33,665 bases of DNA from Candidatus Omnitrophota bacterium (GTDB taxonomy: Bacteria > Omnitrophota > Gorgyraeia > Gorgyraeales > JBBIOC01). This document shows, piece by piece, positions 1,740 to 23,761 of this stretch; position 1 is the stretch's first letter, and each line of letters starts with the position of its first letter. The notes beneath the pieces are model-generated. The model was not told the origin of the DNA. It did not search any database and saw only the letters and a program-made list of their open reading frames with translations. A program made the translations under genes and the position numbers. Location of the stretch: contig JBBIOC010000001.1 in the NCBI GenBank assembly GCA_037443585.1, positions 1 through 33,665 of the forward strand, written 5' to 3'.

Positions 1740-2516
1740 TTATATTTTTCCCAGAACATACATGAATTGATGACTTGCCCCACCATCAAAATCGATATAT
1801 TCTCTACCAATAAGACTGGCAATTTTATTGATCTTTGCTCCATATTGTGGTATCTCAGGCGCAACTAAAAGTGGATGAACAATTTTGGAAATCAGGCAGT
1901 AAATGCCAAAACGCTTAATATCTTTGATAGCAAACTTACCTACAAGAAATTGCTGCAACATATTTTCATCTATATAAAGATTGTGCCAATGTTTCTTCAT
2001 TTCTTCTATTCCAAATTTTTCCCTCATTTCGTCTAACTTTGCCATGCCTTGGACAGATACCTCAAGAAGAATCAATCGACCACCTTTTTTTAATACCCTC
2101 CATATATTTTTTAAAGCTTTCATTTGGTCTTCCCATGTTGAAAGATTAATCAACGTCCGTTCAGATAACACCACATCAAATTGATCGTTATTAAAAGGAA
2201 GGGCAAGAACATCTGCTTGTAGAAATCTAAGTTTATTGCGATTAGCATCATTTAGATACAATCTATTTGCCCAATCGATAAATTCTTGAATATAATCAAC
2301 GCCTATGATTTGACTTACATTCTCTAAGTAACAAAATGTAGAAAAACCATTGCCGCAACCTATGTCCAGAACTACATCTGTTGGTTTAAGGTATCTAGAA
2401 ATTATAGCTATCTCCATTTCTCTAAATTCATGATCTTTTATTGTAGAACGAGGGTCGTTACCTTCATTAATAGCCCTTATCTTCCAATATTCTTTAATCT
2501 CTTCTCTCCTAGGCAT
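1740..2516 (-). CDS. class I SAM-dependent methyltransferase
   Basis: 258 aa with motif I VLDIGCGNGFST, then GVDY, LQADVLALPF and KKGGRLILLE. An AGGAG Shine-Dalgarno sits about 6 nt upstream of ATG 2516. Confidence 0.8.
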   Translation of the reverse strand: MPRREEIKEYWKIRAINEGNDPRSTIKDHEFREMEIAIISRYLKPTDVVLDIGCGNGFSTFCYLENVSQIIGVDYIQEFIDWANRLYLNDANRNKLRFLQADVLALPFNNDQFDVVLSERTLINLSTWEDQMKALKNIWRVLKKGGRLILLEVSVQGMAKLDEMREKFGIEEMKKHWHNLYIDENMLQQFLVGKFAIKDIKRFGIYCLISKIVHPLLVAPEIPQYGAKINKIASLIGREYIDFDGGASHQFMYVLGKI

Positions 2517-2540
2517 ATATTTCTCCTTTTAATTAAAATT

Positions 2541-2954: not shown

Positions 2955-2966
2955 TAGTTGTCTCTC

Positions 2967-4253
2967 TTAAATATAATTAATAGAGATGATTGCAGACTTT
3001 CCCTTTATCCCAAATTTATTAATAGAAGTTACCTTTAGTATATTTAATCCTTTCTGCAATTTCCATTCGAAAACTGGTTCTGTAATATAAACCATATCTT
3101 TTCCTCCATTTAAACTAATTAAAAATTTGTCAAAGTTAGGTGTAACAGTATCTAAATAAACTCTAAGAATAATTCCATCCTGCAAGACATCATAATCCAC
3201 CAGTGTTATGTAAACTTGGTTTAAGGTCCAGTATAAATCTTCTGTTCTATCTGTCTCATTGGCAATACGAATCTCATTCTTTGTATATCTATCTGACCAT
3301 TCCAAGCCATTCATTATAGAATTAGATTTAGGATGCCACCGAGGATAAAGATTTGTAAACCAGTCATTTCTCATCCTGATAAAAAAATTTTCATAATAAT
3401 CTATCAACTTAAATGGATATTTCTCTATTTCTTTACCCTTATTACCTAAGACAACATTTACTCCCCTCCAATCACCCTGCACCCAAATGTTATGTAATTC
3501 CAAAGCATTAATGGGTATGCCATCCATCTCATAATAAAGATTAAATGTTGGGTCAATGACAACCCATTTATTATAGTCCTCAGACCAGACTTCAGCTACA
3601 GCATGCCCCTTAAAAAGCCCTACATATCTTGCAGTTATGCCAAAAGAAGCAAGGAGCTGTATATAGGTAGTGGTGTATTCGCTACAAAAAAACCTCTCCC
3701 CTTTTTCTGCCCTCTCCAATATATCCAAGGCATTAAAATTATAAGATATATTGTGTGGAATACCAAATCTCCAACGAGAATTTACCCACTTTCTAATTAT
3801 CAATATCTTATCAAACTCATTTTTTGCTGGCCCTATAATCTCAACCGGGTTATATTTTTTTCTCAAAGTCTCTAATTTTTTTTCATTAAATGGTTGATAA
3901 TCAAAGCTAAAATTACTTCTGACAATAGGCTTATTATCATATTTTATAATCTTTAGATGCTCCTTTAAATAATCATTCTCATTAAGCGTGGCATAAAAAT
4001 CTTTAGAACCTATTTTTAAACTAAGCAGCCTTTCAGTAACAACAGGCCCTAAATCAGCTTCTTCCCTTTTTTCTTTATAGGGGTCATAAATCTTTGTAAC
4101 AAAACCTCCAGCCTCAGCTGCAATGCGTTTGGTAAGATTGATTGCAAAATTATCTACACTTATTGGTTCAAAGATTCTATAAAATAAAGTAGCGGCTGTA
4201 ACGATACTAAATATACTAATTAAGGGTAAAACTTTTTTAAATTTTTTTTCCAT
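2967..4253 (-). CDS. membrane-anchored transglutaminase-like (Cys-His-Asp) domain protein
   Basis: 428 aa with an N-terminal anchor VLPLISIFSIVTAATLFY preceded by KKFKK. The transglutaminase core has C190 (FFCSEY), H217 (KGHAVAEVW) and D234 (VVIDPT), at approx 3552..3686. The start overlaps the upstream GT4 by 17 nt. Confidence 0.7.
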   Translation of the reverse strand: MEKKFKKVLPLISIFSIVTAATLFYRIFEPISVDNFAINLTKRIAAEAGGFVTKIYDPYKEKREEADLGPVVTERLLSLKIGSKDFYATLNENDYLKEHLKIIKYDNKPIVRSNFSFDYQPFNEKKLETLRKKYNPVEIIGPAKNEFDKILIIRKWVNSRWRFGIPHNISYNFNALDILERAEKGERFFCSEYTTTYIQLLASFGITARYVGLFKGHAVAEVWSEDYNKWVVIDPTFNLYYEMDGIPINALELHNIWVQGDWRGVNVVLGNKGKEIEKYPFKLIDYYENFFIRMRNDWFTNLYPRWHPKSNSIMNGLEWSDRYTKNEIRIANETDRTEDLYWTLNQVYITLVDYDVLQDGIILRVYLDTVTPNFDKFLISLNGGKDMVYITEPVFEWKLQKGLNILKVTSINKFGIKGKSAIISINYI

Positions 4254-6240: not shown

Positions 6241-6247
6241 ATTAAAT

Positions 6248-7051
6248 TTATTTTTTTAAAATAATGGCATAGCCTAAAAAAATGGTATAAGGAGACCAAA
6301 GCCTGTTCCATTTAAAAAATATTTTATCTAAACAAAGAGAAAAAATATTTATTACAGGAACAATAGTGAACATAGTTAAATAACAGAGATATTTGTTTAT
6401 ACTCTTAGTTGACTCGGTTATTAGAAACGCAAGCTGGAGCCCAAAACATTGAAAAAAACCGCCAATACTTTCAAGCCCTATCTGTCTATAAGCAAAATTA
6501 TCACCTATTAATTTAATTATCCCTGCCTGTGTCCACCTCCAATAGTCAGGATAGGTCGGACCTTCTACCTCCATCCCAGGAATATATCTTTCAACTCCTG
6601 GATGGTAACAAAAGCATCCGGGAATGGTAAGAAAAGCTTGCCCTCTTTTTTTTAATAGTCTGTAGATTTCTCCTAAAACTTTTAAAGGGTCATTGACATG
6701 TTCAATCGTCTGAATTGATATAACAATATCGCAACTTTCATCAGGAAGATTAACGGTCTCAGCTGGACAGACTATATCTACTCCTTTACGATTATTAACA
6801 TCGCATCCGATATATTTTGCCGTGTAAGGAGAGAAGAATTCCATGTATGGCTTATCCCCGCAGCCCAAATCAAGAACTATCAAATCTTTTGCACCCTTTA
6901 AATACTCCTTAATGAATCTCTTTAGCAATTTAAGCTGCGCAGAGTGTAATAGATATAATGCATCATAGATCCTTGGTCTCCTCTGGAAATTGCCTCGCTT
7001 TAATCCAAGAATTAAGCTTAGATGCTCTTTTGCCTTAGTTTTAAGTCTCAT
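6248..7051 (-). CDS. class I SAM-dependent methyltransferase with hydrophobic (membrane) C-terminal tail
   Basis: 267 aa with motif I VLDLGCGDKPY, then IGCDV, CDIVISIQTIEHV and LKKRGQAFLTIP. The last ~70 aa contain two hydrophobic helices (FFQCFGLQLAFLI, YLTMFTIVPVINIFSLCL). It overlaps the upstream radical SAM gene by 11 nt. Confidence 0.75.
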   Translation of the reverse strand: MRLKTKAKEHLSLILGLKRGNFQRRPRIYDALYLLHSAQLKLLKRFIKEYLKGAKDLIVLDLGCGDKPYMEFFSPYTAKYIGCDVNNRKGVDIVCPAETVNLPDESCDIVISIQTIEHVNDPLKVLGEIYRLLKKRGQAFLTIPGCFCYHPGVERYIPGMEVEGPTYPDYWRWTQAGIIKLIGDNFAYRQIGLESIGGFFQCFGLQLAFLITESTKSINKYLCYLTMFTIVPVINIFSLCLDKIFFKWNRLWSPYTIFLGYAIILKK

Positions 7052-8645
7052 TCAAATTAAGTGTTTCTAATACCTCGCTATTTCTTCTAGGTACAAAATG
7101 ACCAATGGAGGTCTGTTTTTCTATGCGAAAACTTCTTTTAAAAAATTGAAAGACTCTGGAAGACAAGATAATACTTAATATAAACTTCTCCAACTTAGGT
7201 GAAAGTATATACAAAGTATAAGAAAAAAATGAAAGGCAAAATGTCGCATATTTCTTTCTATGGCTGAATCTTCTCCCGGCCTGCAGTAACCAAACCTTTA
7301 TAAATATTTTCTTAATAAATAGCCTGTGCAATAAATCATATTTATAGAAATTATTCCTCAATTGGCTATGGTCTAAAAAAAACATATGTCTCTTAAAAAA
7401 TGGCTGATAATTATCTTCATCATATTCAGGGATAAAATTTTTCTTATCAAGCCACCAATTTGTAAAACCATATCTTTCATGATATCTGTTATATAATCCT
7501 GTCCGTGGGTAGGGAATTGGAATCCAAAAAGAGTGACTAACTGGAATATCATCTGGAATGGATTTATTTAATCTATAAGTATTTAGTATATTTTTTCTTG
7601 TTTCCCAAGGGAACCCAATCATATTATTTATTCCAAAGGTCGGAATTCGACTCTTTATAGTATATTCTATGCCTTGTTTAATATGTTCCAAAGTCATCCT
7701 TTTATTTATTTTTTCTAGAGTAACGAGGTCCCCGCTTTCTACGCCAAAGACAATTTCCTTTAATCCTACACTTACCATCCTATTTATAAATTCGGTATCT
7801 ATATTGGTTATCCTTGCCAGTGCTGTCCAGCCAATATTGAGATTATTCTCTACGAGTAAAGCCGCAAGACGATATAATCGCTCTTTTTTCATCATAAATT
7901 CATCATCAATGAAATATATGTATCTTGCATTAAATTTAGTATAAAGTTCTTTGATTTCCTGAAAGACATTCTCTGCGCTTCTAAATCTGTAGCCTCTGCC
8001 AAACACATCGGCATTCATACAGTACAAACAATCAAATGGACAACCTCGGCTGGATGAAATAATCCAGAAATATGGGTCGGAATTAGGGTCCTTAAACCCG
8101 GTATAGTTTTCGATTGGAAATAAATCCCGTTCGGGGAAAGGCAGAGAATCAAGGTCTTTAATCAAAGGTCGCGGCGATGTTATAACAATTTTATTGTAAT
8201 ATTTATCCAGGAAGGCAATTCCCTTTACCTTTTCAAAAGTGTTTGTGCTATTTTCAATCATTTTTACCAATTCTACTATGGTCTCCTCCCCTTCGCCTAC
8301 CACAACAAAATCAAAGCCATTCCTTATAGCCTCTTCCGGCATAGCTGAAGGATGAGGCCCGCCGGCGATAAAAATAACATCTCTGAATAGTTTTTTTAGC
8401 TCCTTAACAAAATCATATACATCCGAAATGAAATTTATAAATAATGAAAATCCTACAACGTTTGGTTTATAGTCTTTTATCAATTCTTTAATATTCTCTT
8501 TAGAATATTTTTTAAATGGCGCAATAGCATCCACGATTTTTACTTCATAGTTTTCCTTCTTTAAGGCTCCATAGATATACGACAATCCAATTGGAAAAAA
8601 TGAATTTTGGACAGGTATAGGAGCGGTCAGTAATAAAATTCTCAT
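7041..8645 (-). CDS. B12-binding-domain radical SAM protein (class B), paralogue 1
   Basis: 534 aa. The N-terminal Rossmann-type B12-binding region has VVGFSL, IAGGPHPS and VVVGEGEETIVEL. The radical SAM cluster motif RGCPFDCLYC follows (C202/C206/C209, approx 8019..8042), then GVESG. The C-terminal tail is hydrophobic (FCLSFFSYTLYIL, FILSIILSS). Confidence 0.85.
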   Translation of the reverse strand: MRILLLTAPIPVQNSFFPIGLSYIYGALKKENYEVKIVDAIAPFKKYSKENIKELIKDYKPNVVGFSLFINFISDVYDFVKELKKLFRDVIFIAGGPHPSAMPEEAIRNGFDFVVVGEGEETIVELVKMIENSTNTFEKVKGIAFLDKYYNKIVITSPRPLIKDLDSLPFPERDLFPIENYTGFKDPNSDPYFWIISSSRGCPFDCLYCMNADVFGRGYRFRSAENVFQEIKELYTKFNARYIYFIDDEFMMKKERLYRLAALLVENNLNIGWTALARITNIDTEFINRMVSVGLKEIVFGVESGDLVTLEKINKRMTLEHIKQGIEYTIKSRIPTFGINNMIGFPWETRKNILNTYRLNKSIPDDIPVSHSFWIPIPYPRTGLYNRYHERYGFTNWWLDKKNFIPEYDEDNYQPFFKRHMFFLDHSQLRNNFYKYDLLHRLFIKKIFIKVWLLQAGRRFSHRKKYATFCLSFFSYTLYILSPKLEKFILSIILSSRVFQFFKRSFRIEKQTSIGHFVPRRNSEVLETLNLNET

Positions 8646-8697
8646 AATTTAGGAATCACAATATTATCTTTGATCTACAAGGAAATTAAATATAAAT

Positions 8698-8798
8698 GAT
8701 TACACAGATTAAAGATAAGATTACAGAGATTAAAGCTTTGTTAAACAATCACTGTAATCTCTAATTGCACATTCTATGAGCAAGAAATCTCTGTAATC
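8698..8798. repeat. cluster of GATTACA(G/C)-AGATT short repeats: two direct plus two inverted copies
   Basis: GATTACACAGATTAAAG is at 8698..8714 and GATTACAGAGATTAAAG at 8719..8735, a 21-nt register. The reverse-complement octamer CTGTAATC is at 8752..8759 and 8791..8798, a 39-nt register. AATCTCTGTAATC at 8786..8798 is a perfect 13-nt inverted copy of 8719..8731. All copies lie in the 170-bp wzx-to-radical-SAM intergenic gap. Confidence 0.8.
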
Positions 8799-8815
8799 AA
8801 GAAAAATCTCTTAAG

Positions 8816-10288
8816 TCATCTTGCCCCGAAAGGGGCAAGATTTTTCTTGACCTTGATATATCCCAAAAGATTATCCCAGTATCCCTTTAATTCTTTTATA
8901 GTAAAGGTTATAAATAGCCAGCCAAATAATAAAGGAATGGTGATTAGCTGGAGATATTTGTTCTGAGCTAAAAGAAAGCATATAACCATTAAAAGGCAAG
9001 AGAATAATATTATTTTATAATTACTTGTAGAGATATAAATATTATGTTGCTTTTTTAAAAAAAGTGAAAGTGCCATAAATACCAAGAGTGTTGATATTAA
9101 ATAAGCAACAAAATAGCCTGTAAAACCAAGGTATATGGGAAAAAACAGTGAAAGCAATAGAATAAGTCCATTATAAATCAATGACACTGATAATACAGCC
9201 CTGTAATTGGAATTTGCTACAAATATAAATGTTATGGCGCTATTTATCAGAAAGAAATAATCTCCAATAAATCTCAATGGCAAAAATTCAAAGGCTGATA
9301 GGAACTGCTTTGAAAACAAAATTTTTATTAAAAATCTGCCAATATAAGTAATCACAATAATTATTGTAGGGACTGAGGTTAAAATAATAAACCGGATGGC
9401 TTTATTCAGCTCACTATTTCTTTCATTCATTTTCATATTATTGCAGACTGTTGGCAAAAAATATCCCATTAAGACATCAGAAAGAAACGAAAAAATAACT
9501 ACACTTAATAGCACCACTGATTCATAGATTCCATTGCTTTTGAAATCAAAATTTTTGACAATCATAATCTTTACTAAAAATAAGGTCAGGATATAAAATA
9601 TCCTTGGCAGAAAATAGAGCAGAAACCCTGCTTTGACAAGGTTTCCAAGGAAATGGTAAATAACACTGATTTTTTTTAGACTATTTAATATACCCTGCTC
9701 CCTGAAAATGAAGAGAGATAATATAATGAAAGAGATTATCCCGGTAACTAAAATCTGTAGAAAACCCCCTTCGGTCCTAAAAAAATAAATCAATGGGATA
9801 GCTATTGAAAGCGATAGGACTGAGATAATGGAATTTCCAAGTGCAATGGAAGTTATAGACCTACGCCCTTTTAAATAGTGAACTAATATCTCACAGAAAG
9901 AATAGAATGGAAACGCCACTATTATTAAAAATATCGCATACAAATAATTCTTCCCCATAAATATCCAAAGCGAAAGTCTTTCTTTAAAGATAATCAAAAA
10001 GGCACATAATATCAAAGAATTAAACATAGTAAAGAGTATTCCAGTAAATAATACTTTATGTGCATCCATAGCAGTCTTGCTTTCTGCAGAATATTTAACA
10101 ACACTGAGCTCTGACCCAAGGGTCGATAAAGGAATCAAGGTATTGATAGCGTAAGAGCCCATGGAAACTATCCCCAATCCTTCAGCCCCTAAAAACAATG
10201 CGATGACCTTATTTTTTATAACCCCAGTTAGCAATTTAATTAAATTTGGTATTCCAAGAATTATAGTTGTTGCAAGATATTCAGACAT
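8816..10288 (-). CDS. wzx: Wzx-type oligosaccharide flippase (MOP superfamily polysaccharide biosynthesis protein)
   Basis: 490 aa, hydrophobic throughout (roughly 12-14 helices). The N-terminus LIKLLTGVIKNKVIALFLGAEGLGIVSMG matches the PST-family flippase pattern. It sits among GT genes. Confidence 0.75.
   Translation of the reverse strand: MSEYLATTIILGIPNLIKLLTGVIKNKVIALFLGAEGLGIVSMGSYAINTLIPLSTLGSELSVVKYSAESKTAMDAHKVLFTGILFTMFNSLILCAFLIIFKERLSLWIFMGKNYLYAIFLIIVAFPFYSFCEILVHYLKGRRSITSIALGNSIISVLSLSIAIPLIYFFRTEGGFLQILVTGIISFIILSLFIFREQGILNSLKKISVIYHFLGNLVKAGFLLYFLPRIFYILTLFLVKIMIVKNFDFKSNGIYESVVLLSVVIFSFLSDVLMGYFLPTVCNNMKMNERNSELNKAIRFIILTSVPTIIIVITYIGRFLIKILFSKQFLSAFEFLPLRFIGDYFFLINSAITFIFVANSNYRAVLSVSLIYNGLILLLSLFFPIYLGFTGYFVAYLISTLLVFMALSLFLKKQHNIYISTSNYKIILFSCLLMVICFLLAQNKYLQLITIPLLFGWLFITFTIKELKGYWDNLLGYIKVKKNLAPFGAR
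8819..8840. terminator. GC-rich stem-loop TCTTGCCCC-GAAA-GGGGCAAGA at the 3' end of wzx (candidate terminator, orientation ambiguous)
   Basis: Perfect 9-bp stem with a 4-nt loop. The T-tract (TTTTTCTT) follows it on the plus strand, while on the coding minus strand it is preceded by AAAAA. The hairpin encodes the last wzx codons (LAPFGAR) before the stop at 8816. Confidence 0.3.
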
Positions 10289-10289
10289 C

Positions 10290-11843
10290 TTATTCCTTTA
10301 TTGCATTTTCATAAAATATATATCTCAGGGTATAATTCATTTGTCCTATTATCTTTTTAAATCTTTCTTGGAGGTATAAAGGTAAATATAGAAAGCCTAT
10401 ATGCAAAATCAAAAAAATCAATTTTTTTAGACTTTCATAGGAATCAACTCTTAAATTATTTTTAAACTCAAAGAAATAATTTGTATAAAGATAGATATCC
10501 CTCTTTAGTTTATTGAGAAGCTCTTTGAATCTTTTTTGCGACATATTGGCAAAGGTAAAATCACTCTCTACATATCTTTCGCAAATCTCATCCCAATTCT
10601 CATATTCTCCTTTGAGGATCTTCTGTTCTGTAAGTCTGTCGTAGTCTAATGAGCCTGGCAGGGGTATAAATTTTGCAATTTCAATTCTGCTTGGATGCGC
10701 CTTTTTAAGAAATTTAATGGTCTCAATGATATCTCCCTCTGTCTCTCCGGGTGTCCCAACCATTATATTTACAGTGCAGTTAATTCTATATTTCTGCGAC
10801 AATCTAATTGCATCTAAATTTTTATCCACATTACTTTTCTTATTCATGCGCTTCAGTGTCTCATTCGAACCTGTCTCGCATCCAAAGATAAGCTGAAAAC
10901 ACCCTGAATCTCTTAATGCCTGCATCAACTCATCATCAACGGCATCTACCCTCGTCTGAACAATATATTTGATCCTTCTATTCAATCCACTCTGAATTAA
11001 CTTTCTGGAAATGGAAAGTGCCCTTGCTTTATTTATAGAGAACATATCATCAAGAAAGAAAACCCCTTCAATTCCATAAGTCTCAACGAGGTGTTCTATT
11101 TCCCTGATAATATATTCCGGAGAATGTATTCTAAAATATTTACCCTCTCCTGCTTTGGATAATTGGGGGCTCTGGCAAAAAGTGCACTCAAAAGGGCAGC
11201 CTCTGGCTGTATAAAGAGTTACACTCTTCATAAAAACCCCTCGCATAACTGAGCGATTATTGCTGAAGTAAAATCTTGTATCAAATAGATCCCGCGCAGG
11301 ATAAGGCAAACTGTCCAATTCGCTAATAAATTTTCTCTTTGGATTTGAAACTATCCTTCCATCGCGACGATAGGTTATCCCATCTATTTCATCCCAGGAA
11401 ACGCCATTAGCTATCTCAAGGGTCGTAATCTCACCCTCGCCGCGACATACGATATCAAGTTCTGGAGACTGTTTTAAGGTAAATTCAGGATAGGCAGTTG
11501 GATGGCAACCTCCAACAATAGTTATAATATTAGGATTTACTTCCTTAGCTATCTTAATTGTCCTCAAGGCATCCATTATCAATGGAGTAGAGGCAGTCAC
11601 TCCAACTAAATCAGGCATAAAATCTTTGATTGCCAATCTGGTCAAATAATTAACTGATTCCATAACTTTATCATCCCAATAATCTGCTTTATAGAAAAAC
11701 CTGCGTTCAATAATCTTGACCGAATGCCCGTTCTCTCGCAGAAATGCTGCAATATATCCCAGCCCCAAAGGCATATACAAAATTTCCTGTTCGCGCCATG
11801 ACAATATCCGCTGCCGAAGAGGATTAATTAACATTACTTTCAT
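10290..11843 (-). CDS. B12-binding-domain radical SAM protein (class B), paralogue 2
   Basis: 517 aa with N-terminal LVGVTAS, VGGCHPTAYPE and CRGEGEITTLEI. The cluster motif is RGCPFECTFC (C216/C220/C223, approx 11175..11198). The C-terminal segment is hydrophobic (LIFLILHIGFLYLPLYL). The stop lies 1 nt from the wzx start. Confidence 0.85.
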   Translation of the reverse strand: MKVMLINPLRQRILSWREQEILYMPLGLGYIAAFLRENGHSVKIIERRFFYKADYWDDKVMESVNYLTRLAIKDFMPDLVGVTASTPLIMDALRTIKIAKEVNPNIITIVGGCHPTAYPEFTLKQSPELDIVCRGEGEITTLEIANGVSWDEIDGITYRRDGRIVSNPKRKFISELDSLPYPARDLFDTRFYFSNNRSVMRGVFMKSVTLYTARGCPFECTFCQSPQLSKAGEGKYFRIHSPEYIIREIEHLVETYGIEGVFFLDDMFSINKARALSISRKLIQSGLNRRIKYIVQTRVDAVDDELMQALRDSGCFQLIFGCETGSNETLKRMNKKSNVDKNLDAIRLSQKYRINCTVNIMVGTPGETEGDIIETIKFLKKAHPSRIEIAKFIPLPGSLDYDRLTEQKILKGEYENWDEICERYVESDFTFANMSQKRFKELLNKLKRDIYLYTNYFFEFKNNLRVDSYESLKKLIFLILHIGFLYLPLYLQERFKKIIGQMNYTLRYIFYENAIKE

Positions 11844-12756
11844 AAAATTTATTAAGCGCCTTTCTTTTTATAATATCCAATATGAAAAAAGGATAGATAC
11901 CTATTAATTTCAAAACAGTAAAGATACAATGAAGTATCTTTTTCTCCCTCTTATACGCATCAGCCAGACAGAAATATTGCATAGCAATGCGCTTATTGGC
12001 TTTCATTCCAAGCCTCTCTCTAATCTGCTTATTTTGATTTAGTGCATTTAATCGACACCTGACCTTCTCTCTGTATAACAAAGAAAGATTCTTAGAAATA
12101 CTACCATTGTGTATTCTATATCCTACCAGAGGCTCATTATAATAATAAATCTTATATGTAGGATTTGCTGCAACCCTTAAAAAGAAATCTTCATCCCAGG
12201 CAATTTTATAGTCTGTATTTAAAAATCCAATTTCATCAATCACGGCCCTTCTTACCAAGGCACCACAGCTGTGAATCCCATAAAAAAATATATAGTCAAA
12301 ATCCTTTATTCCTGATGAAAGAATTATATCTCGGTGGTCAATTGTGGTTTGAAAAAATGTCTGCCCGTAGATATTCTTTCCATCTCTATCTATACAATAG
12401 GCATCACAACCAACTACCCCAATTGATGGGTCGGATTCAAGAATGTCTAAAACAGTCTTAAGGTAATCTGGCGTATAAAGAATATCATCGCTATCAAGCA
12501 AGGCTAAGTATCTTCCCTTGGCATATCCTAATGCGGTATTTCGGCTGAACGCAACGCCGCGATTGAAGGCGGATTTGTAATATCTTATCCTACCAGAGTA
12601 TCTCTCTTTGATTAAACTCTCTGTGTTGTCAGTTGAGCCATCATCTATAACTATAATTTCAAAATCTCTATAACTCTGAAAGAGAATACTTTCAATACAT
12701 TTACCTAAAAAGCCTGCCCGATTATAAGTGGGGATTAAAAAACTTATAGTTGGCAT
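11824..12756 (-). CDS. GT2 (GT-A fold) glycosyltransferase
   Basis: 310 aa with ISFLIPTYNRAGFL, IIVIDDGSTDNT, NRGVAFSRNTAL and LDSDD. It overlaps the downstream radical SAM gene by 20 nt. Confidence 0.85.
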   Translation of the reverse strand: MPTISFLIPTYNRAGFLGKCIESILFQSYRDFEIIVIDDGSTDNTESLIKERYSGRIRYYKSAFNRGVAFSRNTALGYAKGRYLALLDSDDILYTPDYLKTVLDILESDPSIGVVGCDAYCIDRDGKNIYGQTFFQTTIDHRDIILSSGIKDFDYIFFYGIHSCGALVRRAVIDEIGFLNTDYKIAWDEDFFLRVAANPTYKIYYYNEPLVGYRIHNGSISKNLSLLYREKVRCRLNALNQNKQIRERLGMKANKRIAMQYFCLADAYKREKKILHCIFTVLKLIGIYPFFILDIIKRKALNKFYESNVN

Positions 12757-12757
12757 A

Positions 12758-13795
12758 CTAACAACCTCGAATCCTTTCTTTTAAGATTCTTTTTAATGGG
12801 CGTATATAATAATTCTTAATCCATCTTAGATTTAATCCTTCTATGCGATAACCCGATTCACAAAATTGGCAATTTTTCAGTTTATTATTCTTAACAAGTC
12901 GCCTGAGTTCTTGATATTTGTCTGAATACCAGATATCTTTAAGAGGGGTTTTGAGAATATTTCCAACGTCTATCTTTTCCTGTGGCATTATTCCATTGCA
13001 GGGGCTGACATTTCCATCTGAATGAATCATAATAAAGTCCCATAACTGATAACATCTGCCATATTCATTTCCATCGAGAAAACTTAAATTTACTTTTAAT
13101 CTTTTAGCAAACTTGCGAGCCTGTTTTACCAATGAAGGGACCTGGCTCAATGGGGCATTTATATCTTTTAGCTTATCAAAGATTGTGGTCATCTGAAAAA
13201 ATTCTACTAAATCTACTCCTAATTCACTGCCTAATTCAATTATGTCTGGCATCTCTTTAAAATTCGAATGATTAATGACTGTATTAATACAAATCTTTAT
13301 GTTAGGAAAATTTTTCTTAAACTTTATAAGAACCTTTATATTTTCTTTGACCTGTTCAAAGGCCTCTTCTTTATCCTGCCTGACATATGCAAAGGTCTTT
13401 GAGTTGGCGCTGTGGATGGATATCTGTATACGTGTTATCCCGGATTCCAACAATCTCTGAGAATATTCCTCATTCAGCAATGTTCCATTTGTAATCAAAT
13501 TTATGAATGGGACCTTTCTTTCTTTTACAATCCGTATCATTTCAAAGATGTCCTTATTAAGCAAAGGTTCTCCTATTCCGCAGAATATAAATTCCCTTAT
13601 ATCTGAAAATTGGTCAAAGATTTTTTTAAAATTATCAAGCGATAGAAAAAAAGAGGTACCATCTTTTGTATTCTGATAATCACACATTATACAGCGGAGA
13701 TTACAGGCGTTGGTGGGTTCTATCATGATAATCCGTGGCAGATCAGGCAAAGGACTATTGTAATAAATGCTATTTAGTTTATCTAAAAGAATCAT
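12758..13795 (-). CDS. radical SAM protein with twitch/partial-SPASM C-terminal domain
   Basis: 345 aa. The cluster motif is EPTNACNLRCIMCDY (C31/C35/C38, approx 13682..13705), followed by GIGEPLLN. The C-terminal Cys set is C248-x12-G-x4-C266 plus C309-x2-C312 (approx 12860..13054). That is enough for one auxiliary Fe-S cluster, and the full CX2CX5CX3C SPASM block is absent. Confidence 0.8.
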   Translation of the reverse strand: MILLDKLNSIYYNSPLPDLPRIIMIEPTNACNLRCIMCDYQNTKDGTSFFLSLDNFKKIFDQFSDIREFIFCGIGEPLLNKDIFEMIRIVKERKVPFINLITNGTLLNEEYSQRLLESGITRIQISIHSANSKTFAYVRQDKEEAFEQVKENIKVLIKFKKNFPNIKICINTVINHSNFKEMPDIIELGSELGVDLVEFFQMTTIFDKLKDINAPLSQVPSLVKQARKFAKRLKVNLSFLDGNEYGRCYQLWDFIMIHSDGNVSPCNGIMPQEKIDVGNILKTPLKDIWYSDKYQELRRLVKNNKLKNCQFCESGYRIEGLNLRWIKNYYIRPLKRILKERIRGC

Positions 13796-13802
13796 TCTTT
13801 TA

Positions 13803-15332
13803 TCATTCTCTGTTAAGTCTGCATTGTAATTTTCTGCTTAAAATCGACCGCAGTGTATTTAATTTATTCACAATCAGCTGTGGCTTCTTTATAACTGAAA
13901 AAATATCTTTAATTGTGTGGTTTAATAACAGTTTTATATCTAAGCCCTGTGCATTTCTTGCGTCTATCCAGGAAGCTAAATTATGGATGAAATTAGTAAA
14001 TTCATCTTTTGACACATACTTTACAAAATGATTCTCTGGACTTTGGTGTGAATAGTTGCTCCAATCAATATACTGAGGTATTAACCCGTGATTTTTGGCA
14101 ATTTCAAATTGTTCTGTCCCCGGATAAGGCGTAAATATGCTTAGGCATATACTCCCCTGTTTTAATTCTTTCATCAATTCAAAGGTCTGATTTATATCTT
14201 CTCTTGTCTCTTCCGGAAATCCAAACATAAAAAATAATTCATATCTTATGCCATATTTCTTTAGGAGTTCTACAGCCCTCTTAACCTGTTCAGGTGTTAT
14301 ATCTTTTTTAATATTCTCAAGAATTCTTTTGCTACCCGATTCTATACCCAATGATATATAATCACAGCCTGACTTCTTCATTGCTGCCAATAATTCTTCA
14401 TCTATGAGGTCAGCTCTGGTTGTGCAACCCCAATAGATATTTAATCTCTCTTCTAGGATTTTCAAACACAGCCTGATTATCCTATTTCTATCAAGTGTAA
14501 AACTGTCATCCCAGAAATATATCTCATTAGTTTCATAATTATCAATGATATCTTTAATCTCATTTATAACCTTTACCAGCTTCCGGTTGCGAACCTTTCT
14601 TGACCATAGATTGTGCGACCCACAATAGCCACATCTAAATGGACAGCCACGGCTAGTAATTAAGTTTCCGAAAGTAGAGGGCCTAAAACGTTCTGAAAAT
14701 ACAAGATGGTTTTTTTCTTTTAAAGGATAAGAAACAACATCTAGATCTTCAATCAGTTCTCTCTTAGGATTGTGAAATACATCTGAATTTGCACGATATG
14801 ACAATCCACTAATTCTGTTTAATAAAGAATAATTTCCTTTTTCTAAAACATCAATCAATTCAGCTATCGTGACTTCGCCTTCCCCCTTTATAATAAAATC
14901 TATATTTTCACTTTGCATAACCTCATCGGGCAGAATAGTTGGATGTGGGCCGCCCCAGACTATTTTGCAATCCTTGTCAATCTCTTTAATTATTTCAGAT
15001 ACCTTTAGTGCAGAGCCATATTTGGCGGTCATAACAGTTATTCCAGCAAAATCAGGACGAAATTTTTCAACAACCTCATAGACCTCTTTCCATACATAGT
15101 GTCCTCTATTTTTTAATGCTTCTGTATATTTAAAGTGGCCATTTAAGGCATCTTTGTAACTTAAATTATAAGAAACCACTTCAGAGGCACTGGGTAATTC
15201 TGCATTATAAAGCATTACCTCGCACTTTTTTAACTTTGCAACCGCGCCAATATATCCCAGACCTAAAGGAAAATAGATATTTCCTATACCTTTCAGTCTT
15301 TCAAAGGGGGGATTAATCAAAAGAATTCTCAT
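13803..15332 (-). CDS. B12-binding-domain radical SAM protein (class B), paralogue 3
   Basis: 509 aa with N-terminal FAGITVM, WGGPHPTILPDE and IKGEGEVTIAELI. The cluster motif is RGCPFRCGYC (C230/C234/C237, approx 14622..14645), followed by GIESGS. Confidence 0.85.
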   Translation of the reverse strand: MRILLINPPFERLKGIGNIYFPLGLGYIGAVAKLKKCEVMLYNAELPSASEVVSYNLSYKDALNGHFKYTEALKNRGHYVWKEVYEVVEKFRPDFAGITVMTAKYGSALKVSEIIKEIDKDCKIVWGGPHPTILPDEVMQSENIDFIIKGEGEVTIAELIDVLEKGNYSLLNRISGLSYRANSDVFHNPKRELIEDLDVVSYPLKEKNHLVFSERFRPSTFGNLITSRGCPFRCGYCGSHNLWSRKVRNRKLVKVINEIKDIIDNYETNEIYFWDDSFTLDRNRIIRLCLKILEERLNIYWGCTTRADLIDEELLAAMKKSGCDYISLGIESGSKRILENIKKDITPEQVKRAVELLKKYGIRYELFFMFGFPEETREDINQTFELMKELKQGSICLSIFTPYPGTEQFEIAKNHGLIPQYIDWSNYSHQSPENHFVKYVSKDEFTNFIHNLASWIDARNAQGLDIKLLLNHTIKDIFSVIKKPQLIVNKLNTLRSILSRKLQCRLNRE

Positions 15333-15347
15333 AGCTATTTAAATCAA

Positions 15348-16673
15348 TTATGAATACGAATTAGTATAAAGCCTTGAATGTAAACCCAGACCTATAAATA
15401 TGAAAGTCAACATAACGACTATTGCTTTATGTCTATACATAGTTCCAACATTCCCCTCGTAAATTGCTAAAAGAATACTAAAGATTATAATTGTGGCAAT
15501 GAGTAAATAGCTATCCTTTATTTTATTTTTTATCGCAAGGCGCATACCTTTTATAGCAAAAGGCAATAATAAATACCAGGCGAGCATTTCCGGAGCAGCA
15601 AAAATTTGATTTAAAGAAAAGACCTGCCATGGAAAAGGTGCAAACCAGACTGCAAAAAGTCCTAATGGTAAATAGACCAAAAGGCTTCCTAAAGAAAAAA
15701 TTTTAAAATTTGAAAAATAAGCAAGCCTGCCATATGACCTCAATTGTCTTTCTGTGCTGATTGTTTCAAAAAAACTAGCGTTAAGGTAATTTGTAAAAAT
15801 CTGTCTGGATACAGCAAAGGTTATAATTGCTAGAAAGATTATAATTGCTAACTTTATTTCTTTTTTAATCCTGATGAAAAATAAAAAATAAATTAAGTAT
15901 AATAAAAAAAGGGGGGCAATAGTGTTGATTCGTAAATAATATAAAATTACCAAGCAGAAACAAGAAGAAAAAAAAGAACTAATTTTAAAACTGTATCGCA
16001 ATTTAAGCAAAAAATATAAAAAGGATAGTATTGCTAAATTAGTTATGGGGTCCTTCAGGTTCTGAGTAGACCAGAGAATAAGAGAAGGCCAAAAGGTGTA
16101 AAATGCACTTGCAAACAGTGCTATTTCTCTATTAAATATCTTGTTTGAGATAATAAAGATAAGTATAATTGGCAGGCTACCTGCAAGGCAATTTATAAAA
16201 AATAAGGAGAAGGGGCTATAACCAGTGATTGAATAAACAATCGCATTAAAGAAATCATAATTACTAACTGTCCCACTTGCAGAACCAAAATTTGGAACAA
16301 AATTGATTTTATTAACTTCTATTCCTCTATCCCAGAGCTGAGAAATCGCCCATCCGTTTAAAGAATAATTGTATCCATCTCCAAAAAAAAAGCCTTCATC
16401 TCTTTGCAAAATTGACATAATAAAATATAAAAAGACTGATATTAAAATTCTGATTAAAAAACCCGCAATAAATAAAAAGAAAATGCTATCAAATTCCTCT
16501 GGACAATCAAATGATATTATAATGATGCCTGCTAATAATCCTCCAGCGACAATCAGAAATGGAAAGGAATATTCTAAAGGCAACAAACTGAATAAAATTG
16601 TGATTAGTGCGCCTGCAATTAAAATCCATATCTTTTTATAAGTTCTTATAAATGTTAATGACTGAATCTTCAA
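15348..16673 (-). CDS. polytopic inner-membrane protein, candidate Wzy-type polymerase or GT-C glycosyltransferase
   Basis: 441 aa with about 10-12 hydrophobic segments and no soluble domain. An acidic/aromatic loop RDEGFFFGDGYNYSLNGW follows the early helices. Its position between the PCP gene and the GT/flippase genes fits Wzy, but I cannot separate Wzy from GT-C by eye. Confidence 0.5.
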   Translation of the reverse strand: MKIQSLTFIRTYKKIWILIAGALITILFSLLPLEYSFPFLIVAGGLLAGIIIISFDCPEEFDSIFFLFIAGFLIRILISVFLYFIMSILQRDEGFFFGDGYNYSLNGWAISQLWDRGIEVNKINFVPNFGSASGTVSNYDFFNAIVYSITGYSPFSLFFINCLAGSLPIILIFIISNKIFNREIALFASAFYTFWPSLILWSTQNLKDPITNLAILSFLYFLLKLRYSFKISSFFSSCFCLVILYYLRINTIAPLFLLYLIYFLFFIRIKKEIKLAIIIFLAIITFAVSRQIFTNYLNASFFETISTERQLRSYGRLAYFSNFKIFSLGSLLVYLPLGLFAVWFAPFPWQVFSLNQIFAAPEMLAWYLLLPFAIKGMRLAIKNKIKDSYLLIATIIIFSILLAIYEGNVGTMYRHKAIVVMLTFIFIGLGLHSRLYTNSYS

Positions 16674-16677
16674 TTTT

Positions 16678-17310
16678 TTATTTTTTTATAGATGTCCAGG
16701 TCTTAAAGTATTCTGCGCCAAAGGCAAAGAGAACGGCTATAAAGAATGCAAAGATTGCTGCTATGGCTATACGCTTGAGTATATGTCTTGGGTCTGGTCT
16801 TGTAGCAGGGATAGCCGGATCGAGAACCTTTACCATTGGACGTTGAGGGGTTATGTTCAATTCAGCATTTATTACATCTAAATTTTTGATGCAGAAATTA
16901 GCAATCTCTGAGACCAGTTTTGGTTCGCGACCTTTTACTTCGATTATAAGCGTGCCCTGTTTTGTATCAAAGGCCTCTAACTTAAGTTTAAAATTGGAAA
17001 TTCTGCTTAGCTCTTTAAAATTTGAATAGATGTCATCGAGCATCCTCCTGCTTTTCACAATGGAGATTATAGTATTTGCTGAAGAACTACTGAATGAAAG
17101 CTCAGGAAGGCCAAGGAATCTGCCAAAGGCAGACGTTGTTGTGCCCGAACTTTCTGTTAACAATATCGAACACCTTGAAGTATATGATGGTTTTTTAATT
17201 ATTCCACTTAAAAAACCAAAAAAAGCAGCAAGAACTATCAAAAAAAGAATCATTTTGTAATTTTTTTTGAAGATATTAAAATAATAGAAAATGCCAATTT
17301 CATATTCCAT
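16678..17310 (-). CDS. short polysaccharide co-polymerase (Wzz/PCP family) without kinase domain
   Basis: The Wzz-type N-terminus is FNIFKKNYKMILFLIVLAAFFGFLSGIIKKPSYTSRCSILL. A proline-rich segment DPAIPATRPDPRH lies just before the C-terminal TM helix (IAIAAIFAFFIAVLFAFG). I prefer ATG 17310 because it is preceded by AGGAGGGG; the track's TTG at 17331 is the alternative start. Confidence 0.65.
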   Translation of the reverse strand: MEYEIGIFYYFNIFKKNYKMILFLIVLAAFFGFLSGIIKKPSYTSRCSILLTESSGTTTSAFGRFLGLPELSFSSSSANTIISIVKSRRMLDDIYSNFKELSRISNFKLKLEAFDTKQGTLIIEVKGREPKLVSEIANFCIKNLDVINAELNITPQRPMVKVLDPAIPATRPDPRHILKRIAIAAIFAFFIAVLFAFGAEYFKTWTSIKK

Positions 17311-17405
17311 ATCCCCTCCTGTATCTCTCAAAATCTCCCTTTGCCATCATTTTTATTAAATTTTCAAAATTTCATAATATTGCAGTATGTCGGTTAAGTA
17401 TTGTT

Positions 17406-18377: not shown

Positions 18378-18435
18378 AATTTATCTAAACCTATAATTTA
18401 CCTGTGCCTTCCCTTCTTGGCTTGCCTTTGACGTT

Positions 18436-18467
18436 AAATTAGCCCTCGCCTTCGGCTCGGCTAATTT
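18436..18467. other. imperfect extended hairpin AAATTAGCC...GGCTAATTT downstream of the small-ORF cassette, upstream of gmd
   Basis: Perfect 9-bp outer arms at 18436..18444 and 18459..18467, with an inner GCC-TTC-GGC mini-stem. It may be a weak terminator for the cassette; the U-tract on the minus strand is poor. Confidence 0.3.
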
Positions 18468-18572: not shown

Positions 18573-18623
18573 ATTTTATACTTTCCTATACTGTAAAGAT
18601 ATATAAAGGGCTTACACAACGAT

Positions 18624-19392: not shown

Positions 19393-19406
19393 TTTTTAAT
19401 TCGCCC

Positions 19407-22177: not shown

Positions 22178-22195
22178 CTTCCCCCTCCTTTTGGT

Positions 22196-23761
22196 TTAGA
22201 ATTTTCGACTTACCTCCACACCTAAAAAATGATTCCTCACAGACTTCGACGTATTCTGGTAGTTATTAATCCGCTCAAATTCATAAGAAATACTTATGTC
22301 GATATTCTCAATATTATACTGCTTCAGCCCATTTATCAAAGAAAATTCTAAACGAATCTCATCAGTGGTTTCAATTAAAGCGCTATTTAATCCCCGTCGC
22401 TGGTGGCTTATAGTACCAGTCAATTTTGCCTCATTTGGAAAATGGGCTATGCCTGATATTGCAAAGTCGTCAGCATTTTCTCCGACGTGATGGCCAATTA
22501 TGTTTCCTCTGTGGGTATACCCTGAAGTATATCTAAAATGCTGATACCAGCCAGACTCAAATCTTGCATATTCTATCTTTCCATCAAGTCCAGGGACTTT
22601 AAAAATATCTGTAAAAAACGCCCCAATAATCCCTGCAAGAATCTTTGGAATATTTCCTGCTTCATCCTCAGCACCGCCTTCTATGTATAATTTTGCGCCT
22701 GTTGCAATCGGCAGGAAGCGGTCAATCCGTCTTAAAAATAATTGAATATCCCCAGAGATTATGTGATTTTCAGTCTCTGTCTCGCCTCCTGCAGGGCTAA
22801 ATACCAAAGATGCAGAACTTATAAAATTTGCAAATCCAAGCCGCTTGACGCCCTTTCCCCCAAACATAAGTATATGTCCTGCGCCGAACTTTAAAAAACC
22901 CCAGGGGGTGTAGTCAAGCCTCCAGCCAGCAACAGATACATTTGGAACAGCGCGCTTCTCTTCAAGCCTCGATACAAAGAAGATACCATTGAACCTGCCC
23001 AGTCTTCGGAATATCCACGGAAGCCGAAAAGGCGTCTTATTATTCAATCTGACCATATCCAAAGGAAATGCATTATCAGTCATTAGAAGCGAGCCGTGGA
23101 ATCCAGGCCCCCACCACATAGAATTCCGGCCCAAAGCCAACTCAAGGTTGAGCCTTGGGTGGCTAACCCTTATATGCGCATTTTCAAAATCTGCGTCAGT
23201 GTCTTCTCTGCTATAACGAATGCCTGGCGTAAGCGATACAGCAAAAAAATTCGCTGCCTTTGCCCATGATGTAATCCTTGCGCGGATGTTAAAACCATCC
23301 TTCGGCTTCCAACCATCCTTATTTTCAAAGAGCGCCTGATCTATGTCTAATTTTGTATATAATTTCTCTATTCTTATCGGGTCTGCAATCTTGAATCTAT
23401 ATTTTTTTGGGCCCCCATCGTGGTTTACAGCTACCTCAACACCTATTGTTATAAGCTCTTCGCGAAATTCTTCTATTAAGTCATAAAGAAGCGTCTCATA
23501 ATACTCTTGAGCTTGCCAGTCAAAATCTATGTTGTAGTCCCTTGCCTTCTCAATGGCGCTCTTTATTATATAAGCCATCTTTATTCGAGAGACTGGCCGA
23601 GCGCCTATATCAGCTATGTCGCAGAGTCCAACGATTGCAAGTTTCTCTATCGCATCGTAGCTCCAGTGCCTAAGCGGCACATCCACTGAAGGGTTTGCCC
23701 ATATTAAAGGTGGTATCAGAATTGTAGTGCATAATATCAAGATGCTGATTCGGCGAACCAC
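22196..23761 (-). CDS. outer-membrane beta-barrel protein, Wzi (capsule assembly) family-like
   Basis: 521 aa with signal peptide [22 protein letters not shown]. The N-terminal motif [19 protein letters not shown] resembles the Wzi N-terminal (and SLH-like) W....L...G pattern. The body has alternating beta-strand-like character and ends in a terminal aromatic (VEVSRKF). GTG start at 23761. Confidence 0.55.

Follow-up and report, generated by a model that had tools for sequence, protein, structure and literature searches.

A conserved, shuffle-able cassette of class B radical SAM enzymes, a candidate for glycan tailoring, in a surface-polysaccharide locus of an uncultured Omnitrophota bacterium

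Three paralogous radical S-adenosylmethionine (rSAM) enzymes of the cobalamin-binding type (class B) are encoded among glycosyltransferase (GT), methyltransferase (MT) and flippase genes on a 33,665-nt stretch of contig JBBIOC010000001.1 (Candidatus Omnitrophota bacterium, assembly GCA_037443585.1). This whole stretch is referred to here as the window, and coordinates without a locus name refer to it. Every one of its large open reading frames (ORFs) lies on the minus strand. The paralogues, termed r1, r2 and r3, are part of a conserved but shuffle-able cassette that also comprises an rSAM gene of the Twitch/SPASM type, a family 2 GT (GT2), MTs, a family 4 GT (GT4) and a flippase. In order of transcription, the cassette consists of the following features:

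13803..15332, minus strand: class B rSAM paralogue 3 (r3), 509 aa; PF02310 65.9 bits, PF04055 107.6 bits
12758..13795, minus strand: rSAM enzyme and partner of r3, 345 aa, whose SPASM domain is Twitch-like; PF04055 86.6 bits, PF13186 53.1 bits
11824..12756, minus strand: GT2 (GT2b), 310 aa, hydrophobic helix in the C-terminal part; PF00535 117.5 bits
10290..11843, minus strand: class B rSAM paralogue 2 (r2), 517 aa; PF04055 100.4 bits, PF02310 73.5 bits
8816..10288, minus strand: MOP-family (Wzx-like) flippase, 490 aa; weak WzxE match of 52.7 bits over residues 15-407
8646..8815, minus strand: 170-nt intergenic insert with palindromic repeats
7041..8645, minus strand: class B rSAM paralogue 1 (r1), 534 aa; PF02310 84.5 bits, PF04055 81.8 bits
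6248..7051, minus strand: class I S-adenosylmethionine-dependent MT (MT_6248) with a C-terminal transmembrane (TM)-like segment; PF08241 53.4 bits
5377..6240, minus strand: second class I MT (MT_5377); PF08241 72.1 bits
4237..5376, minus strand: GT4; PF00534 151 bits

The first-pass annotation, made from the sequence alone, had described r1 to r3 as three ORFs of one architecture, and this description was borne out. Each of the three contains PF02310 and PF04055 above the Pfam cut-offs (32.1 and 29.5 bits, respectively), and the quoted motifs are present (GGPHPS, GGCHPT and GGPHPT; GEGE; RGCPFDCLYC, RGCPFECTFC and RGCPFRCGYC). The tight packing that had been reported also holds for the flippase, the GT2 and the fourth rSAM gene, which are interleaved with the paralogues at junctions of 1 to 20 nt or with overlapping ends (20 nt for r2 and GT2b, 11 nt for r1 and MT_6248), but not for the 170-nt gap at 8646-8815. 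Pairwise identity among r1, r2 and r3 is only 28 to 29%, which indicates ancient paralogues rather than recent duplicates.

The CX3CX2C motif (C202/C206/C209 in r1) has invariant equivalents in the family alignments of all three paralogues, and the GG(P/C)HP and GEGE motifs are likewise invariant across these alignments. AlphaFold2 (AF2) models of r1 and r3 (pLDDT of 91.2 and 89.7, respectively) placed the GG motif at the end of beta4 and the GEGE motif at the start of alpha5. A Gly-Gly pair on beta4 together with Gly-Glu at the start of alpha5 constitutes the base-off cobalamin-binding signature of OxsB, TsrM and TokK (PMC9204698). Since the motifs match those aligned from the cobalamin-bound structures of TokK (AGGPH/GEGEV), QCMT (GGP/GEGE) and OxsB (VGN/KEGE), we infer on good grounds that r1 to r3 bind cobalamin. 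The head of the fold-match list was occupied exclusively by class B rSAM enzymes and their relatives, namely TsrM, QCMT, OxsB, CysS, AprD4 and TokK for r1 and AprD4, QCMT, TsrM, OxsB and TokK for r3, with TM-scores of 0.43 to 0.72 for TsrM, QCMT, OxsB, TokK and CysS. Structure prediction and fold search upheld the class B fold, with the GG and GE motifs placed as in cobalamin-bound structures, but did not discriminate between chemistries, as AprD4, QCMT, TsrM, OxsB, TokK and CysS all match similarly.

Membership in a clade of known non-glycan function, which would have spoken against a role in glycan tailoring, was not observed, as all curated NCBIfam scores lay far below the respective cut-offs. 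For r1, r2 and r3, respectively, BchE (TIGR02026) scored 168.6, 192.0 and 195.4 bits (cut-off, 481.35), HpnJ (TIGR03471) 139.3, 191.7 and 198.1 bits (cut-off, 577.6), and AprD4 (NF033070) 52.8, 82.0 and 115.1 bits (cut-off, 500). Scores for QCMT/MgmA (TIGR04014), PhpK (TIGR04479), Sden_1168 (NF038361), HpnR (TIGR04367), the RiPP C-methyltransferases of TIGR03975 (where RiPP stands for ribosomally synthesized and post-translationally modified peptide), ApyD (NF050148) and the ladderane-associated B12-rSAM family (TIGR04072) spanned 73 to 160 bits, against cut-offs of 282 to 750 bits. No chlorophyll genes were found nearby, and neither the window nor the orthologous loci contain shc or hpn genes. 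The pattern of matches would place r1 to r3 in the large main cluster of the class B sequence similarity network (SSN), which holds BchE, HpnJ, the ladderane enzyme and SD1168 as well as the sugar-acting GenK, Fms7 and MoeK5 (PMC9204698).

HpnJ, TIGR04072 and HpnR are among the top NCBIfam matches, and the r1 and r2 clades have hydrophobic tails, as would be expected if the enzymes modified membrane lipids or the polyprenyl carrier (hopanoid-, ladderane- or ether-lipid-type chemistry) and were merely passengers in a glycan locus. However, these three scores are all less than half of their cut-offs, and the paralogues are translationally packed with GT2, Wzx and MT genes and have relatives fused to GT4 and TylF domains. 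Hopanoid, squalene, fatty-acid and ether-lipid genes are absent from the window and the orthologous loci. We consider lipid modification very unlikely and rejected it because of this absence of lipid genes.

AprD4 (PDB 6FD2) is the best PDB sequence match of r1 (51.7 bits) and r3 (100.2 bits), while r2 matches QCMT (66.1 bits) ahead of AprD4 (62.6 bits). Besides CX3CX2C, the r3 family conserves C289, C303 and C323, and the same three cysteines align with AprD4 (LELC / WWCETR / AGCVG). They are absent from r1 and QCMT, r2 has the third only, and in r3 they may make up an auxiliary site or have a catalytic role. The gene for the fourth rSAM enzyme invariably adjoins r3. This enzyme matches PF13186 at 53.1 bits, yet the seven-cysteine SPASM motif is not present; only four C-terminal cysteines are conserved (C248, C266, C309 and C312 in seven orthologues), which is in line with a Twitch-like domain that holds one auxiliary cluster. 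Its orthologues are 45 to 55% identical, and its top PDB sequence matches are BlsE and BtrN, the closest solved relatives, both of which act on carbohydrate-derived substrates.

These observations bear on the possibility that the glycan context is right and at least one of the enzymes does not methylate. Such an enzyme might be an AprD4-like 1,2-diol dehydratase yielding a deoxy or keto sugar, a ring-contracting enzyme like HpnJ or OxsB, or an epimerase or oxidase, and the B12-like domain could be structural or could use cobalamin differently. This is in line with AprD4 being the best or second-best PDB sequence match of all three paralogues and the top fold match of r3, with the three extra cysteines common to the rSAM domains of r3 and AprD4, with the constant pairing of r3 with a relative of BtrN and BlsE, and with HpnJ and BchE, which are non-methylases, being the best NCBIfam matches. 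However, AprD4 aligns with the window proteins in the rSAM domain only, the N-terminal domain matches the GG and GE motifs of TokK, QCMT and OxsB, and every family score is far below its cut-off. Furthermore, most characterized class B enzymes are methylases (PMC9204698), and C-methylation is favored here for this reason. Non-methylating chemistry is thus possible but the less likely case overall. The AprD4 match, the shared cysteines and the Twitch pairing are reasons to keep these options in view, especially for r3.

The first-pass annotation had made its proposal depend on conservation of the linkage to wzx and GT genes in relatives. Such conservation was indeed found. All three paralogues occur with SPASM, GT2b, MT, GT4 and flippase genes in the loci L001/L087 and L084, and subsets of the cassette occur in L002 (a Candidatus Omnitrophica metagenome-assembled genome [MAG], GCA_016783325.1, the nearest named relative of the cassette), L088, L096, L099 and L100. 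Identity between the window proteins and their orthologues is 68 to 74% for r1, 65 to 72% for r2 and 50 to 51% for r3. The r3 family is broad (more than 3,000 matches, the best at about 51% identity), the r1 family is narrow (8 clusters at 68 to 73%, the next at 40%), and the r2 family is intermediate (seven full-length clusters at 64 to 72% and about 20 at 42 to 49%). Three orthologue clades were resolved in a neighbor-joining tree, along with two or more additional clades whose members act as replacements in some of the cassettes.

Gene order and content vary around this core. In L001/L087 the order is GT2b, Wzx, r3, SPASM, r2, r1, MT, MT, GT4, MT. L084 contains the full gene set of the window at 34 to 73% identity, first Wzz, PMT_2, GT2b, r2, Wzx, r1 and MT_6248 and then r3, SPASM, GT4, MT_5377, the transglutaminase-core gene, cupin and GT2a; recovery of the same gene set from an independent metagenome contig shows that the arrangement is not an assembly artifact. 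The Omnitrophica MAG locus L002 contains GT2b, Wzx, r3, SPASM, r1, MT_6248, GT4 and GT2a without an r2 orthologue, and insertion sequence fragments and another class B paralogue lie close by. L088 retains r1, SPASM, GT4, MT_5377, the transglutaminase-core gene, cupin and GT2a, with two other class B clades replacing r2 and r3. In L099, r2, r1, MT, GT4 and MT are linked to the heptose-precursor genes HldE and GmhA, while L096 and L100, which encode r2 relatives of 45 to 47% identity, preserve a local order of SPASM or PMT_2, GT2, an r2-like gene, Wzx, MT and more class B rSAM genes.

Several pairs behave as stable subunits, namely r3 with SPASM, r1 with MT_6248, GT4 with MT_5377, and GT2b with r2, the last in four of the six loci that have both. 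Orthologues of MT_6248 (62 to 63% identical) directly follow r1 in L002 and L084, and those of MT_5377 (47 to 48%) adjoin GT4 in L001, L084 and L088. GT2b orthologues are 54 to 62% and GT4 orthologues 33 to 37% identical, and GT2a (66 to 69%) and the cupin (62 to 68%) have orthologues in L084 and L088. The L084 orthologues of the PMT_2-type protein and Wzz are 59 and 62% identical, respectively; PMT_2 genes also adjoin GT2-rSAM-wzx in L100 and lie inside the cluster of L094. The window flippase has many hydrophobic segments and no Pfam match, and its counterparts by position in L001, L002, L096 and L100 contain PF01943/PF13440; it is 27% identical to its positional counterparts in L001/L002 and 64% to that in L084.

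The replacement of r2 and r3 by other clades in orthologous cassettes suggests combinatorial swapping of radical tailoring enzymes, like the GT swaps in O-antigen loci. Substitute class B clades were located at 8406-10001 and 13310-14818 in L088, 2025-3545 and 5390-6922 in L085, 2485-4023 in L002 and 6177-7703 in L096. More distant loci with multiple rSAM and GT genes are present in archaea (DPANN and Bathyarchaeia) as well as in Patescibacteria and Planctomycetota.

A link between the family and glycan enzymes is also provided, as independent support, by gene fusions. In P0276 and P0277 (886 and 891 aa), a GT4 domain is attached to a class B rSAM enzyme that shares 36% identity with r2, and a GT4 fusion protein is included in the sister clade of r2. 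These fusions were found in JGI, Logan and ENA assemblies (10001-12661 in L094/L095), in a cluster that also encodes Wzx, Transglut_core, four further class B rSAM enzymes, another rSAM enzyme, three GT2s, PMT_2, a methyltransferase and epimerases. A second kind of fusion, P0056 (782 aa), joins a relative of r3 (48% identity) to a TylF-type O-methyltransferase. In addition, a relative 37% identical to r1 is located in a nonulosonic-acid cluster with a Wzx flippase.

The only loose junction of the cassette is the 170-nt insert that parts the wzx stop from the r1 start. It contains four copies of the 13-mer GATTACAGAGATT that are laid out as nested inverted repeats, folds as RNA at -54.3 kcal/mol (z = -5.0), and is accompanied by a GC-rich hairpin at 8818-8841 that overlaps the wzx stop codon. 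The syntenic locus L084 is without the insert, and wzx and r1 overlap there. The insert looks like an insertion of the miniature inverted-repeat transposable element (MITE) or repetitive extragenic palindrome (REP) kind or like a regulatory palindrome. ORFs inside the insert are of 20 to 22 aa only and lie within the palindromic repeat, with no precursor-peptide ORF among them.

This last result is relevant to RiPP maturation, in which class B C-methyltransferases would act with a SPASM maturase. The pairing of a B12-rSAM enzyme with a SPASM enzyme is typical of RiPP clusters, there are sub-threshold matches to ApyD and TIGR03975, and a related array in Candidatus Amarolinea (L097) is without GTs. 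On the other hand, a precursor-peptide ORF, a protease and a peptide exporter are all absent, the SPASM domain has four cysteines and not seven, and the context is consistently that of glycan assembly. RiPP maturation is the least probable of the alternatives considered and was rejected, as there is no precursor ORF and the sole intergenic gap holds only the short ORFs described above.

The first-pass annotation had taken hydrophobic C-terminal tails of r1 and r2 as consistent with work on lipid-linked intermediates. The tails are conserved in both clades (C-terminal Kyte-Doolittle values of 1.2 to 1.9 for r1 and 1.5 to 2.15 for r2), but in the window proteins they are weak for r1 (1.18), where simple TM prediction supported no true transmembrane helix, and borderline for r2 (1.63). 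GT2b and MT_6248 have further hydrophobic segments (2.08 at residues 274-297 and 1.96 at residues 221-246, respectively). No hydrophobic C-terminal segment was found in clade r3 or in the GT4-fused relative. Together with the flippase, the segments of r1, r2, GT2b and MT_6248 favor intermediates on a polyprenyl carrier, on the cytoplasmic side of the membrane, as the substrates.

Precursor genes differ from locus to locus, with Gmd in the window, HldE and GmhA in L099, DegT and an acetyltransferase in L002, and no genes for nucleoside diphosphate (NDP)-sugar precursors within the 21.5-kb L001 stretch. The rSAM/GT2b/MT core is constant, and its combination with variable precursors argues for a common sugar that is installed by a conserved GT and modified after transfer. 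Tailoring of soluble NDP-sugars before glycosyl transfer would instead suit the presence of Gmd, two UDP-sugar dehydrogenases, four SDR-type epimerase/dehydratase proteins, a nucleotidyltransferase and two cupins in the locus, as well as the lack of a hydrophobic segment in r3 and the SPASM enzyme. We regard it as unlikely, as it fits poorly with the varying precursors around a constant core and with the conservation of hydrophobic segments in the r1, r2, GT2b and MT_6248 clades. The GT4 fusion, moreover, suggests action on the acceptor or product of the transferase. Of the analogues, MoeK5 has a lipid-anchored sugar as its described substrate. So does HpnJ (PMC9204698).

Overall, the earlier proposal that the enzymes tailor sugars of the repeat unit or of a lipid-linked intermediate is supported as far as computation goes, by the conserved wzx/GT linkage, the GT4 and TylF fusions and the hydrophobic segments. 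With a probability of roughly 0.6, the cassette performs radical tailoring of polyprenyl-linked sugars before flipping in a surface-polysaccharide locus, with C-methylation as the likeliest chemistry. In this setting, an uncultured diderm bacterium would make a surface polysaccharide that depends on Wzx and is exported through Wza/Wzi. After glycosyl transfer by GT2b, GT4 or both, and ahead of flipping by Wzx, r1 to r3 would act on the polyprenyl-phosphate-linked sugar or oligosaccharide on the cytoplasmic side of the inner membrane. Each rSAM enzyme would reductively cleave S-adenosylmethionine at its [4Fe-4S] cluster, and the resulting 5'-deoxyadenosyl radical would take a hydrogen from an unactivated carbon, located in the sugar itself or in one of its substituents; in the likeliest case, methylcobalamin would then supply a methyl group. 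The class I methyltransferases would install O- or N-methyl groups, and the Twitch enzyme paired with r3 could catalyze a step of the oxidation, epimerization or elimination type. One or more of the paralogues, with r3 as the best candidate, may be non-methylating and carry out an AprD4-like dehydration or an HpnJ-like ring contraction. The coupling of r1 to a methyltransferase and the rSAM-TylF fusion would also permit, as a matter of speculation, a CysS-like extension of an O-methyl group.

Next to the cassette lie the following features:

15348..16673, minus strand: polytopic membrane protein of the PMT_2/GT-C type with many hydrophobic segments; PF13231 30.1 bits (cut-off, 26.1)
16678..17331, minus strand: short Wzz-type chain-length determinant with two terminal TM segments; PF02706 40.3 bits
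17406..18377, minus strand: GDP-mannose 4,6-dehydratase Gmd, precursor supply; TIGR01472 415.4 bits (cut-off, 415)
19439..23761, minus strand: export machinery, a Wza-like protein (Poly_export and six SLBB stretches) and Wzi; PF02563, PF10531 and PF14052, with EpsE and pepcterm_export matches
2967..4253, minus strand: membrane-anchored transglutaminase-core protein, hydrophobic at N-terminal residues 7-28; PF01841 39.2 bits
2541..2954, minus strand: small cupin (WbuC/FdtA/RmlC-like); PF05523 and PF00908, WbuC 32 bits (cut-off, 42)
1740..2516, minus strand: third class I MT; PF08241 78.5 bits
1024..1737, minus strand: short GT2 of the polyprenyl-phosphate sugar synthase type (GT2a); PF00535 60.5 bits

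Transcription from 33644 to 19439 begins with genes for a ROK kinase and an OstA-like protein, continues through a precursor part (two UDP-sugar dehydrogenases, a cupin, a sugar-phosphate nucleotidyltransferase and three SDR-type epimerase/dehydratase proteins) and ends with Wzi and the Wza-like exporter. After a DUF2204-like ORF, the order is Gmd, the short Wzz, the PMT_2/GT-C-type protein, r3, the SPASM-domain rSAM enzyme, GT2b, r2 and the MOP flippase, followed by r1, two class I methyltransferases, GT4, the transglutaminase-core protein, the small cupin, the third methyltransferase and GT2a. Parts of a Wzx-dependent, Wza-exported pathway are thus present in the form of the Wzx-like MOP protein, Wzz, Wza (Poly_export and SLBB) and Wzi. 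The Wza-like exporter (19439-22177) is unusually long at 912 aa, with about 230 residues ahead of the Poly_export domain and six SLBB stretches. Among the transferases, GT2b has a full-length, sub-threshold match to PglI, GT4 has the PEP-CTERM/XrtA-associated stp2 family as its top NCBIfam match (187 bits; cut-off, 409), and the top matches of GT2a, all sub-threshold, are PpgS, AglJ, a Dol-P hexose transferase and ArnC. The transglutaminase-core gene travels with the cassette in L084 (13152-14417) and L088 (18789-20075), where its orthologues are 55 to 62% identical, and a Transglut_core gene adjoins wzx in the unrelated fusion-protein locus L094 (367-1548).

The two halves of the window differ in base composition. 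G+C content is 30 to 38%, mostly 32 to 35%, in the distal 19 kb (1-19000) and 38 to 43% in the export/precursor half (19000-33665). A low-G+C half is typical of the variable, serotype-determining portion of surface-polysaccharide loci, and the contrast fits a horizontally exchanged, variable glycan cassette. Near the boundary, the DUF2204 (nucleotidyltransferase-like) ORF at 18796-19314 stands isolated between wza and gmd (18378-19438); beyond it lie 418 nt without a convincing gene and a hairpin with a 14-bp stem (18510-18543), and the region may be a toxin-antitoxin or mobile-element remnant at the edge of the variable region. At the contig end, positions 1-1023 (31.6% G+C) hold no ORF of at least 100 aa on either strand, and the lone ORF of at least 40 aa there encodes 49 aa (475-624, plus strand); the operon appears to end with GT2a. 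A tRNA scan of the window found none, and a promoter/terminator scan was uninformative (92 promoter-like sites versus 85.6 expected).

Several observations weigh against radical, cobalamin-dependent tailoring of a polyprenyl-linked glycan. Cobalamin binding is predicted from motifs only, and homologues of AprD4 and ArsL within the same similarity network bind no cobalamin (PMC12931638). Function inside this class is, moreover, unpredictable from similarity (PMC9204698). An Rfam scan of the window found no cobalamin riboswitch and no other RNA, and the window contains no B12 genes. Neither an initiating phosphoglycosyltransferase (WbaP/WecA type) nor Wzy (Wzy_C/EpsG type) was recognized within the window, which leaves the type of pathway only partly established; the PMT_2-like polytopic protein is the sole polymerase candidate there, and the contig may end before the Wzy and initiating transferase genes. 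In a genome-collection scan with an r3 profile, the matches listed were distant relatives (28 to 43% identity); among these matches listed, 43 of 80 distant loci had a GT gene and 33 of 80 had at least two class B rSAM genes, counts that are descriptive and have no background control. One relative of r1 (P0130; 40% identity) sits with an AMP-ligase gene of the acyl-CoA-ligase type and a Liv-type ABC transporter. Finally, the Candidatus Amarolinea array (L097; GCA_900491745.1, 631-11071) comprises six class B rSAM and two SPASM genes with no glycosyltransferase within 8 kb, and its function may differ from that of the window cassette. Two GH17 glycoside hydrolase genes adjoin this array.

The first-pass annotation knew of no characterized polysaccharide pathway with three such enzymes. 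In agreement with this, a literature search on O-antigen, capsule and exopolysaccharide turned up no account of a class B rSAM enzyme in such pathways, a result that is no more than suggestive, as subscription journals lay outside its coverage. The words "polysaccharide," "glycan" and "capsul" never occur in a 2026 review of class B enzymes, and a 2026 preprint on Omnitrophota genomics noted hypervariable polysaccharide cassettes and did not describe these enzymes. The analysis thus supports a conserved, modular and so far uncharacterized rSAM glycan-tailoring cassette, within a pathway type for which the literature searched has no characterized class B rSAM enzyme. Going further, we tentatively suggest that the product is an undescribed surface glycan built on a polyprenyl carrier, with sugars that are alkylated at unactivated carbons, carry O-methyl groups that class I and class B methylases, acting in a coupled way, have extended to larger alkyl ethers, or are ring contracted. 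If this were true, swapping of at least five class B rSAM clades would be a general route to surface diversification in uncultured anaerobes, with Omnitrophota among the candidate lineages.

Class B rSAM enzymes are known for difficult C-H functionalization in antibiotics, cofactors, pigments and lipids. The cassette suggests that uncultured anaerobes modify sugars of their envelopes by radical chemistry that probably depends on cobalamin. Such chemistry would bear on surface variation in largely host-associated or ultra-small organisms, for example in relation to phages or host contact, and on environmental cobalamin demand, and it would provide further enzymes with which glycans could be C-alkylated or deoxygenated at a late stage. 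Concrete, testable entry points are available in the three well-defined clades of orthologues and in the naturally occurring fusions to GT4 and TylF.

Compared with characterized systems, the cassette shares individual features with several. The iterative class B methylases CysS, TokK and ThnK have the same fold but are remote, at 13 to 18% identity in fold alignments. CysS extends a methoxy group by radical methylation (PMC9204698), and the methyltransferase coupled to r1 and the r3 relative fused to TylF would suit such an install-then-extend sequence, a chemistry that is speculative here. AprD4, the closest solved match of r1 and r3, and BtrN/BlsE, those of the fourth rSAM enzyme, act on carbohydrate-derived substrates. 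AprD4, however, binds no cobalamin (PMC12931638), whereas the window proteins retain the GG and GE cobalamin motifs.

Among the sugar-acting enzymes GenK, Fms7, MoeK5 and HpnJ, all members of the main SSN cluster (PMC9204698, PMC12931638), the first three belong with GenD1 to the class B sugar C-methyltransferases of antibiotic pathways (MoeK5 in moenomycin, GenK/GenD1 in gentamicin and Fms7 in fortimicin biosynthesis). These C-methyltransferases resemble the predicted activity in that they are rSAM enzymes of the cobalamin type and add methyl groups to unactivated carbons of sugars. They differ in belonging to actinomycete secondary-metabolite clusters rather than to Wzx/Wza surface-polysaccharide loci. 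MoeK5 has been assigned the methylation of a sugar of the lipid-linked moenomycin scaffold.

In the Arn pathway, the GT2 ArnC makes an undecaprenyl phosphate-linked sugar that is tailored by ArnD, flipped by ArnE/F and used by the GT-C enzyme ArnT. The window likewise encodes a short PpgS/ArnC-like GT2, a PMT_2/GT-C protein and a flippase. The combination of the PMT_2/GT-C protein with GT2a suggests an additional periplasmic branch that would use a polyprenyl phosphate-linked sugar donor with Arn-like logic. In L084 and L100, moreover, the order PMT_2 - GT2 - class B rSAM - Wzx suggests a route in which a monosaccharide is built on a lipid, modified in the cytoplasm, flipped and then transferred. 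Unlike in the Arn pathway, tailoring in the window would proceed by radical chemistry and not by deformylation, and no protein reaches an Arn family cut-off.

A further parallel is found in the hopanoid branch, in which HpnI glycosylates a membrane-anchored acceptor and the class B-type HpnJ then uses radical chemistry to remodel the sugar that was added (PMC9204698, PMC12324291). For r2 and r3, HpnJ ranks first or shares first place among the NCBIfam matches. The HpnI/HpnK/HpnJ system has a single rSAM enzyme, whereas the cassette has three paralogues and a Twitch enzyme, and the acceptor of the cassette is presumably a glycan on a polyprenyl carrier, which Wzx flips and Wza exports. Tailoring of polyprenyl-linked sugars by r1 to r3 would thus be analogous to the action of HpnJ on glucosaminyl-bacteriohopanetetrol (PMC9204698, PMC12324291).

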